Shown: in pieces, positions 43,474 through 43,686 of the stretch
Layout of the letters: every line of letters starts with the position of its first letter
How positions within the stretch are numbered: position 1 is the stretch's first letter
Source of the DNA: an uncultured Acidobacteriota bacterium
Lineage (GTDB): Bacteria; Acidobacteriota; Thermoanaerobaculia; Multivoradales; UBA5704
Length of the DNA stretch: 64,000 bases
NCBI GenBank assembly: GCA_963770895.1
Contig: CAVYRF010000001.1
Coordinates: forward strand, 1,887,472-1,951,471
Direction: 5' to 3'
The notes under the pieces: generated by a model
Told to the model about the DNA's origin: nothing
Databases searched by the model: none
What the model saw: the letters and a program-made list of their open reading frames with translations, nothing else
Translations under genes and position numbers: made by a program

Positions 43474-43686
43474 TCAGCAGAGATTGGTGGTGCAGGTCCC
43501 CGCGCAGGTGAGACAGGTGTTGCGGTTGGGGCCGCTGTACTGGCAGACCGGCATGCAGGTGTAGCTGGCGCAGCCGTAGCAAGTGGAGTATTCGGTGGTT
43601 GCGCCGTTGACCGGCGTCAGCTCGGCGCGATCCAGCTCGATCAGAGTTTCACGATGCAGGGTCAACCGCTTGTGCGTTTTCTTCAT
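43474..43686 (-). CDS. Putative RiPP precursor peptide: double-glycine (GA)-type leader plus Cys/Thr/Ser-rich 41-aa core
   Basis: MKKTHKRLTLHRETLIELDRAELTPVNGA | TTEYSTCYGCASYTCMPVCQYSGPNRNTCLTCAGTCTTNLC. Hydrophobic residues sit at -4, -7, -12 and -15 relative to GA. The core has 8 Cys and 12 Thr/Ser. A strong RBS (AAGGAGGAG) is present, GC is lower than the genome, and the gene is divergent from the VioB-like pair. Confidence 0.6.
   Translation of the reverse strand: MKKTHKRLTLHRETLIELDRAELTPVNGATTEYSTCYGCASYTCMPVCQYSGPNRNTCLTCAGTCTTNLC

Follow-up and report, generated by a model that had tools for sequence, protein, structure and literature searches.

A family of Cys/Thr-rich, precursor-like peptides with lanthipeptide-type leaders that stands alone in Acidobacteriota genomes

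Introduction

In marine cyanobacteria, the ProcA precursors of the prochlorosins are matured in trans by one ProcM enzyme and one C39 exporter; these precursors carry a Nif11-type leader, are modified by a class II enzyme, possess hypervariable cores and are encoded in multiple copies per genome. The class I lanthipeptide precursors (LanA) of Bacteroidetes are characterized by a leader with the LxLxKx5L motif that often ends in Gly-Gly, and the C39 protease is encoded within the cluster (Walker et al., 2020, PMC7268733).

Here we analyse a 70-aa peptide encoded in a 64,000-nucleotide stretch of DNA (hereinafter, the window) from an uncultured Acidobacteriota bacterium, along with its relatives. 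The leader of this peptide is of a type that is already known from the Bacteroidetes class I LanAs (PMC7268733), and some members of the family have been annotated automatically. The family itself is large, is found in soil Acidobacteriota, is uncharacterised and always stands alone, away from modifying enzymes. An initial annotation of the window had described the gene as an orphan that encodes a RiPP-precursor-like peptide; within the 64 kb, the gene is indeed an orphan, and our analysis supports its status as a genuine precursor-like gene. So which enzymes, if any, act on this peptide, and what might its relatives tell us about them?

The peptide gene and its surroundings

The peptide is encoded by a complete ORF on the minus strand (43474-43686, with the stop codon at 43474-43476), the translation of which is MKKTHKRLTLHRETLIELDRAELTPVNGATTEYSTCYGCASYTCMPVCQYSGPNRNTCLTCAGTCTTNLC; the coordinates, the translation and the division of the product into a leader and a 41-aa core agree with the initial annotation. 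The ribosome-binding site, which that annotation called near-perfect, is AAGGAGG (43692-43698, minus strand), located 5 nt before the ATG and conserved in all orthologues. Likewise, the GC content of the ORF is, as annotated, comparatively low, at 0.61 against 0.72 for the window. By codon position, GC3 is still 0.83 and the first-position GC is 0.44, so that the low overall value stems from the first codon positions, that is, from the amino acid composition (Lys, Thr, Asn, Tyr and Cys), and not from a foreign origin of the gene. The pairwise dN/dS values between the window peptide and orthologues from other contexts are in the range of 0.24-0.43. Thus, the gene is real and evolves under purifying selection. 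Compared with the near-identical relative L001 (related loci are numbered L001 and so on, and proteins P0010 and so on), the peptide is 83% identical and the neighbouring genes are 91-99% identical, so the peptide evolves faster than its surroundings while retaining the Cys/Thr pattern.

Conservation extends beyond the coding sequence: in alignments of six contexts, it reaches from about 75 nt before the start codon to the stop codon. A non-coding upstream element (43699-43755, minus strand), with the conserved sequence GGCACCAGAGTARGTAGGA ... CGCCCGCCGAYGGGCGG ... ACGCTGTCATCGAAAGGAGGAG, travels with the gene in six contexts and is found in the window and in L001, L002, L003, L006, L045 and L049. 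The window copy of this element lacks 6 nt, GCACCA, that are present in all other copies, and accordingly, expression of the window copy may be altered. The upstream region contains no canonical sigma-70 promoter, no intrinsic terminator and, by eye, no convincing sigma-54 site; the element shows no Rfam match and no covariation support, and the fold of the 5' UTR in the window is no better than those of shuffled sequences. Just after the stop codon, there is a GC-rich hairpin (43417-43462, minus strand; -47.1 kcal/mol, z -2.97) that lies between convergent genes and is terminator-like but lacks a U tract; other orthologues have a different GC-rich hairpin at the same place. The conserved upstream stretch, the end of conservation at the stop codon and the hairpin that follows it jointly point to an autonomous monocistronic unit.

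On one side of the peptide gene, the window encodes an MFS transporter, a histidine ammonia-lyase, an FHA/sigma-54 activator and a glyoxalase-fold protein; on the other side, there are genes for a ferritin-like PF12902 protein and its family-less partner, a low-GC variable segment, and genes for RsgA, a PIN protein and urocanase. The genes for histidine ammonia-lyase (39210-40844) and urocanase (50519-52483) flank the entire block that includes the genes for the sigma-54 activator, the peptide, the ferritin-like pair, RsgA and the PIN protein, so that, in both the window and L001, unrelated genes spanning about 10 kb separate the histidine-utilisation (hut) genes from one another. The low-GC segment (46500-48200; GC of 0.50-0.60 against 0.72) is a variable island: its ORFs (46600-47394, plus strand; 47496-48119, minus strand) have no family match, and the syntenic spot in L001 is occupied by other genes, namely those for an M50-like peptidase and a 65-aa ORF. 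Between the divergently oriented peptide and ferritin-like genes, the GC-rich intergenic region contains a perfect AT-rich palindrome, ATAGTACTAT (43783-43792), most of which is retained in L001; it may serve as an operator or as part of a promoter.

The initial annotation reported that RiPP enzymes are missing throughout the 64 kb, and our searches of the window likewise found none. The Pfam scan covered 40 window ORFs, chosen for their length and codon bias, with several short ORFs and one 605-aa ORF (14957-16774), the latter with an esterase-type GHSMG motif, outside this set; it revealed no LanB, LanC, LanM, YcaO, radical SAM or Peptidase_C39 domain. The CxxxCxxC motif is absent from all predicted genes of the window; searching the window by tblastn with LanC, HopA1 lyase and APH kinase queries produced nothing; and NCBIfam and Pfam scans of the window and the neighbours detected nothing relevant. 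Furthermore, neither the window nor the annotated contexts of the relatives encode a C39-domain ABC exporter, and the only exporters near the peptide are of the HlyD/MacB type (21.9-27.3 kb). Specifically, three genes for HlyD-family membrane-fusion proteins and one for a MacB-type permease, without a C39 domain, are located 16 kb from the peptide (21944-27287, plus strand), and a similar HlyD/MacB pair is found 8 kb from a family peptide in L038 (1-2478). Transporters of this type are abundant in Acidobacteriota, so that their proximity to the peptide is probably coincidental.

In the absence of canonical enzymes, the initial annotation turned to the adjacent gene pair (43797-46408, plus strand), which encodes the ferritin-like protein (534 aa; weak similarity to VioB residues 598-737) and then a 322-aa protein that matches nothing in Pfam, NCBIfam or the PDB, as the possible modification machinery. 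The arrangement is suggestive inasmuch as the peptide and the pair are divergently transcribed neighbours with a common 110-nt intergenic region, both proteins of the pair are uncharacterised, and the same layout recurs in L001 and a Logan contig. However, a tblastn search across 44 loci found the pair only in the window and in L001, that is, within the lineage of the window; the closest 8-Cys subfamily (64-76% identity) lacks it in five other contexts; and the unit that is conserved along with the peptide extends no further than about 75 nt beyond the start codon on the upstream side, leaving the pair outside. The lack of co-occurrence implies that the pair is not the modification machinery: this proposal is largely refuted, and we give it hardly any credence. 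The same fate befalls the more general idea of locally encoded machinery given that, in about 16 other contexts, the homologues are never next to either the pair or modification enzymes.

Conservation of the leader and the core

A word-indexed search recovered an identical protein in NCBI/ENA together with four relatives, whereas much larger sets came from profile searches: 435 matches at E<=1e-3 among 1.84 billion representatives, and 452 proteins at E<=1e-4 with a profile built from 39 members. One candidate, P0010 (5578 aa), is a repeat protein that was picked up by the profile search as a false positive. The hosts named in the records are Acidobacteriota and Thermoanaerobaculia MAGs. Two levels of relatedness are apparent, namely a broad superfamily in which only the leader is common to all members (MKKxxKKLxLxRETLxxLxxxxLxxVAGG) and the cores are varied but Cys-rich, and a narrower subfamily in which the members also have the C-terminal module of the window peptide. 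A literature search on the peptide family found no paper, and there is no curated model or characterised member for the ...TCxTCxxTCTTNxC-COOH module.

The leader of the window peptide comprises residues 1-29, MKKTHKRLTLHRETLIELDRAELTPVNGA (43600-43686, minus strand), and features an LxLxRx5L motif and a Gly-Ala cleavage site of the double-glycine type (L8-x-L10-x-R12-x5-L18 ... G28-A29). Double-glycine leaders have GG, GA or GS at positions -2/-1 and hydrophobic residues at -4, -7, -12 and -15; counting from G28-A29, the sequence reads V-4, L-7, E-8, L-12 and L-15, in agreement with this consensus and with the leader type that was originally assigned. In nearly all of the relatives shown, the corresponding site is GG. 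Screening with RiPP-leader models, as the initial annotation had advised, yielded a single match for the window peptide, to NF038153 (lant_leader_L1a, 'class I lanthipeptide'), at 16.4 bits, which is below the cutoff of 22; for the family as a whole, 38 of the 39 members match this model, with the best E-value of 1.3e-8. Furthermore, one family member has a precomputed match to the Pfam domain PF28317 (Lant_leader_dom), and two members, P0264 and P0360, bear the NCBI product name 'class I lanthipeptide'. These profile matches identify the leader as a homologue of the leader domain found in class I lanthipeptides (NF038153; PF28317). AlphaFold2 (AF2) predicts a helix at residues 12-18. A second model, TIGR04149, which describes radical SAM (rSAM)-modified RiPPs with a GG leader, matches 10 of the 39 family leaders (best E-value of 1e-6), albeit not the window peptide itself, so that the leader does not fix the chemistry.

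The core (residues 30-70; 43477-43599, minus strand) consists of 41 aa, among which are the 8 Cys and 12 Ser/Thr residues counted originally. Its C-terminal module reads C48-x-Y-S51...T57-C58-x-T60-C61-x-x-T64-C65-T-T67-N68-x-C70, and the module that defines the family is C-x-[FYW]-S-x(2-5)-T-C-x-T-C-x(2,3)-C-x-[TS]-N-x-C-stop. In the alignment of 116 subfamily sequences, C48, C58, C65, N68 and C70 are invariant, C61 is found in 114 and C44 in 106, so that the family passes one of the tests put forward in the initial annotation, conservation of the Cys pattern in homologues. Beyond these, P46 is present in 102 sequences, an aromatic residue at position 50 in 111, and G54 in 93. The hydroxylated positions are no less constrained: position 51 is occupied by Ser in 113 sequences and by Thr in 3, position 60 by Thr in 103 and Ser in 13, and position 67 by Thr in 105 and Ser in 11, so that only Ser or Thr occurs at these three positions in 116 of 116 sequences; at position 57, there are 114 Thr, one Ser and one Gly (115 of 116). 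The alignment thus indicates strict conservation of a Ser/Thr/Cys/Asn pattern across the subfamily, and the exchange of Ser for Thr only (apart from the one Gly at position 57) is the pattern expected for dehydration sites. Moreover, the conserved S51, T57, T60 and T67 are positioned 3-7 residues N-terminal of C58, C61, C65 and C70, so that the core combines Ser/Thr donors and Cys acceptors at a spacing compatible with lanthionine rings, and the number of Ser/Thr residues equals or exceeds the number of Cys residues in 115 of 115 cores.

An alternative reading is that the peptide is secreted unmodified, or only disulfide-bonded or metal-binding. In that case, the leader would serve solely for C39 cleavage and export, via an ABC transporter with its gene elsewhere in the genome, and the core would be a chelator of metals, a signal or a toxin resembling class II bacteriocins. 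The CxxC spacing (C58-x-x-C61), along with the further Cys residues, could accommodate a metal, and P46, G54 and the aromatic residue at position 50, all conserved, look like the structural residues found in small folded domains. Several observations are at odds with such a peptide, however. The cores contain 5 (7 cores), 6 (29), 7 (65) or 8 (14) Cys residues (n=115), so that the number is odd in 63% of them, and the minimal module has 5 Cys, to which a purely disulfide-bonded fold fits poorly. Near-absolute retention of Ser/Thr at four positions is not expected of a disulfide scaffold. Despite the 116-sequence alignment, AF2 arrived at no confident fold (mean pLDDT of 52.5, with the core below 50), and a model this poor (pLDDT of 52) does not justify a fold search; a profile search of the PDB identified no solved relative. 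Finally, the N-terminal, LxLxKx5L part of the leader is conserved beyond the needs of C39 recognition and matches lanthipeptide leader models.

The matches to TIGR04149 bring up yet another possibility, modification in trans by a radical SAM/SPASM maturase that would form a ranthipeptide- or sactipeptide-type thioether, possibly via Asn68 or Thr. Enzymes of this class make Cys-Asn and Cys-Thr thioethers in peptides of the NxxC and thermocellin types, and in the family, an invariant Asn precedes the invariant C-terminal Cys by two residues. The family spacing is N-x-C rather than NxxC, however, and NF038153 gives stronger matches, and to many more members (38 of 39), than the rSAM model does. 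Neither an rSAM gene nor the CxxxCxxC motif is present in the window, and the annotated contexts of the relatives contain no rSAM gene either. Therefore, we regard an rSAM maturase as improbable.

Genomic contexts of the family

Related loci were collected from a genome scan, a metagenome scan (29 loci) and contig look-ups, and together they represent about 17 distinct neighbourhoods. In all of these independent contexts, the peptide gene is found alone among unrelated, mostly housekeeping genes. It is located between genes for apolipoprotein N-acyltransferase (lnt) and a GT2 glycosyltransferase (L003, L004 and L007), between DUF3224 and TIR protein genes, between those for a PLP decarboxylase and RNase E, between DUF1254/1214 and BNR protein genes, or between ABC-F and FG-GAP protein genes; in still other contexts, an S41 peptidase, a BrnT toxin or restriction-modification genes are nearby. 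In three different contigs (L024, L039 and L043), the peptide gene lies directly upstream of rpsP-rimM-trmD-rplS, and in L043 its upstream neighbour is ffh; this recurrent placement indicates vertical inheritance at a housekeeping locus. An all-against-all BLAST comparison of the neighbour proteins from 18 loci detected no neighbour families in common beyond the synteny groups, and Pfam scans of the large neighbours in the other loci returned housekeeping functions only. Searches of up to 10 kb of flanking sequence (less on short contigs or where smaller flanks were fetched) in about 16 other contexts uncovered no LanB, LanC or other modifying enzyme and no C39 transporter. Nearly all of the loci fetched contain one family copy each. 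Thus, the peptide gene is systematically unclustered. Unclustering this consistent is atypical for class I lanthipeptides, and vertical inheritance in housekeeping neighbourhoods, such as ffh-peptide-rpsP, is unusual for antibiotics.

In L003, L004 and L007 (about 8400-11500), the peptide gene is inserted between the lnt and GT2 genes, a pair that we take to be the layout of polyprenol-phosphate mannose synthesis. The GT2 protein was considered as a glycocin-type, SunS-like modifying enzyme and rejected: the match is a generic GT2 one (45 bits for SunS against a cutoff of 350), the gene is absent from the other contexts, and it is paired with lnt.

An operon that is conserved in Acidobacteriota encodes, in this order, a Cys/Thr-rich repeat protein (473-512 aa), a kinase (APH-like), a lyase (HopA1-like) and a cyclase (LanC-like) (L032:1964-6972, minus strand; L034:7261-12387, plus strand; L035:1-4255). 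The repeat protein, 473 aa long in L032, contains about 20 repeats of TCGGPTxCGGIxTCGQTCxxI. The operon resembles a lanthipeptide synthetase of the three-component, class V-like kind whose substrate is giant and repetitive. Could the family peptide be another substrate of this system? In L032, the operon is only 4.5 kb away from a family peptide; the operon of L034 and the family peptide of L043 come from one and the same ENA assembly, ERZ25039530; and the TCxxTC spacing in the repeat protein is similar to that in the family core. Against this, the operon has its own adjacent substrate-like protein, the N-terminus of which is unrelated to the peptide leader, and none of the three enzymes was detected in the window by tblastn. 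The operon in L032 resides on an island that is missing from L033, a collinear locus that is 98% identical on both sides and has kept the peptide, and conversely, there is no family peptide within 10 kb in L034 or nearby in L035; we thus judge the linkage in L032 to be coincidental. In addition, the source contig of the window is not the longest contig for any of the HopA1 homologues listed. All told, it is highly improbable that the family peptide is processed by these enzymes.

The contexts also bear on the possibility that the peptide is not modified at all. In none of the approximately 17 contexts is a modification enzyme linked to the gene, and single-copy, vertical inheritance in housekeeping loci suggests a physiological role. 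Weighed against the odd Cys numbers, the invariant hydroxylated positions and the conserved N-terminal part of the leader, an unmodified or merely disulfide-bonded or metal-binding peptide seems unlikely, though this reading carries appreciable weight.

A preferred reading and its implications

The explanation that we tentatively favour, at somewhat less than even probability, is that the family consists of precursors in which lanthionine-type thioethers are installed in trans, followed by C39 cleavage and export. We infer export and C39 cleavage as well as any modification, its chemistry and the ring pattern. Under the favoured scenario, the gene would be a self-contained transcription unit that encodes a precursor peptide with a 29-residue leader of the LxLx(K/R)x5L...Gly-Gly type that occurs in class I precursors from Bacteroidota and from related Gram-negative phyla, and this leader would probably have two jobs. 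The core would most likely be dehydrated at the conserved Ser/Thr residues, which would then be joined to the conserved Cys residues as (methyl)lanthionine-type thioethers; S51->C58, T57->C61, T60->C65 and T66/T67->C70 are plausible rings, in addition to N-terminal ones. An ABC exporter encoded elsewhere would use its C39 peptidase domain to remove the leader after G28-A29, and the product would be a compact, polycyclic secreted peptide with a C-terminal Cys. The phylum offers a precedent for such chemistry in the form of the Thr-Cys-rich repeat proteins encoded directly beside the kinase, HopA1 and LanC genes. Nevertheless, several facts weigh against trans-installed thioethers: neither a modifying enzyme nor C39 is encoded within the 64 kb or in about 16 other contexts (up to 10 kb); the window leader scores below the NF038153 cutoff, and the leader type is common to several RiPP chemistries; inheritance is of the housekeeping-locus kind; and the window copy has the 6-nt upstream deletion.

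A broader conjecture, which we consider rather doubtful, is that these genes are phylum-wide autonomous single-gene units of Acidobacteriota, each with its upstream element, ribosome-binding site and terminator hairpin, whose products are matured by machinery that is never clustered with them, either a promiscuous synthetase encoded at the genome level (analogous to the prochlorosin system, but of the class I or three-component type) or an unrecognised type of enzyme. The product would then be physiological, with a role in signalling or metal handling, rather than a strain-variable antibiotic.

Either outcome has consequences for genome mining. Tools such as antiSMASH and RODEO find RiPPs via the enzymes, so that a precursor-like family that is never clustered is invisible to them. 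If maturation does take place in trans, a considerable hidden repertoire of polycyclic peptides would exist in Acidobacteriota, which are dominant in soil and have rarely been cultured, along with a promiscuous synthetase of biotechnological interest. If they are unmodified, leader models of the lanthipeptide type over-annotate 'class I lanthipeptides' in public genomes.

Comparison with known systems

With the class II (unmodified) double-glycine bacteriocins and peptide pheromones, the family has in common the hydrophobic residues at -4, -7, -12 and -15, the Glu at -8 and a small secreted product; however, the genes of those peptides normally adjoin immunity, transporter or two-component genes, and the combination of Cys/Thr richness and invariant Ser/Thr positions is not seen in their cores. 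The GG-leader precursors of rSAM-modified RiPPs in Bacteroidota (TIGR04149) have a similar leader, to which 10 of the 39 family leaders match, but this match is weaker and less general, there is no rSAM/SPASM neighbour, and the core is different.

The closest kind of peptide is the class I LanA of Bacteroidota (NF038153, pinensin-type; PMC7268733), which has the same leader length, the LxLx(K/R)x5L motif, the Gly-Gly/Gly-Ala end and a similarly Ser/Thr- and Cys-rich core, with significant HMM matches for 38 of the 39 family members. In contrast to these LanAs, the family is found in Acidobacteriota (Thermoanaerobaculia-like hosts), the window leader falls under the curated cutoff, and there is no LanB, LanC or C39 gene nearby in about 17 contexts. 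Since LanB and LanC are not encoded locally, either in the 64 kb or in about 16 contexts, we do not grant the family membership among the class I lanthipeptides.

In terms of organisation, the closest analogue is provided by the prochlorosins, with their many precursors that have a conserved double-glycine leader and cores rich in Cys, Ser and Thr and are encoded by genes scattered away from the synthetase. Unlike the prochlorosins, the family described here has a strongly conserved core module and, in nearly all loci, a single copy per locus.
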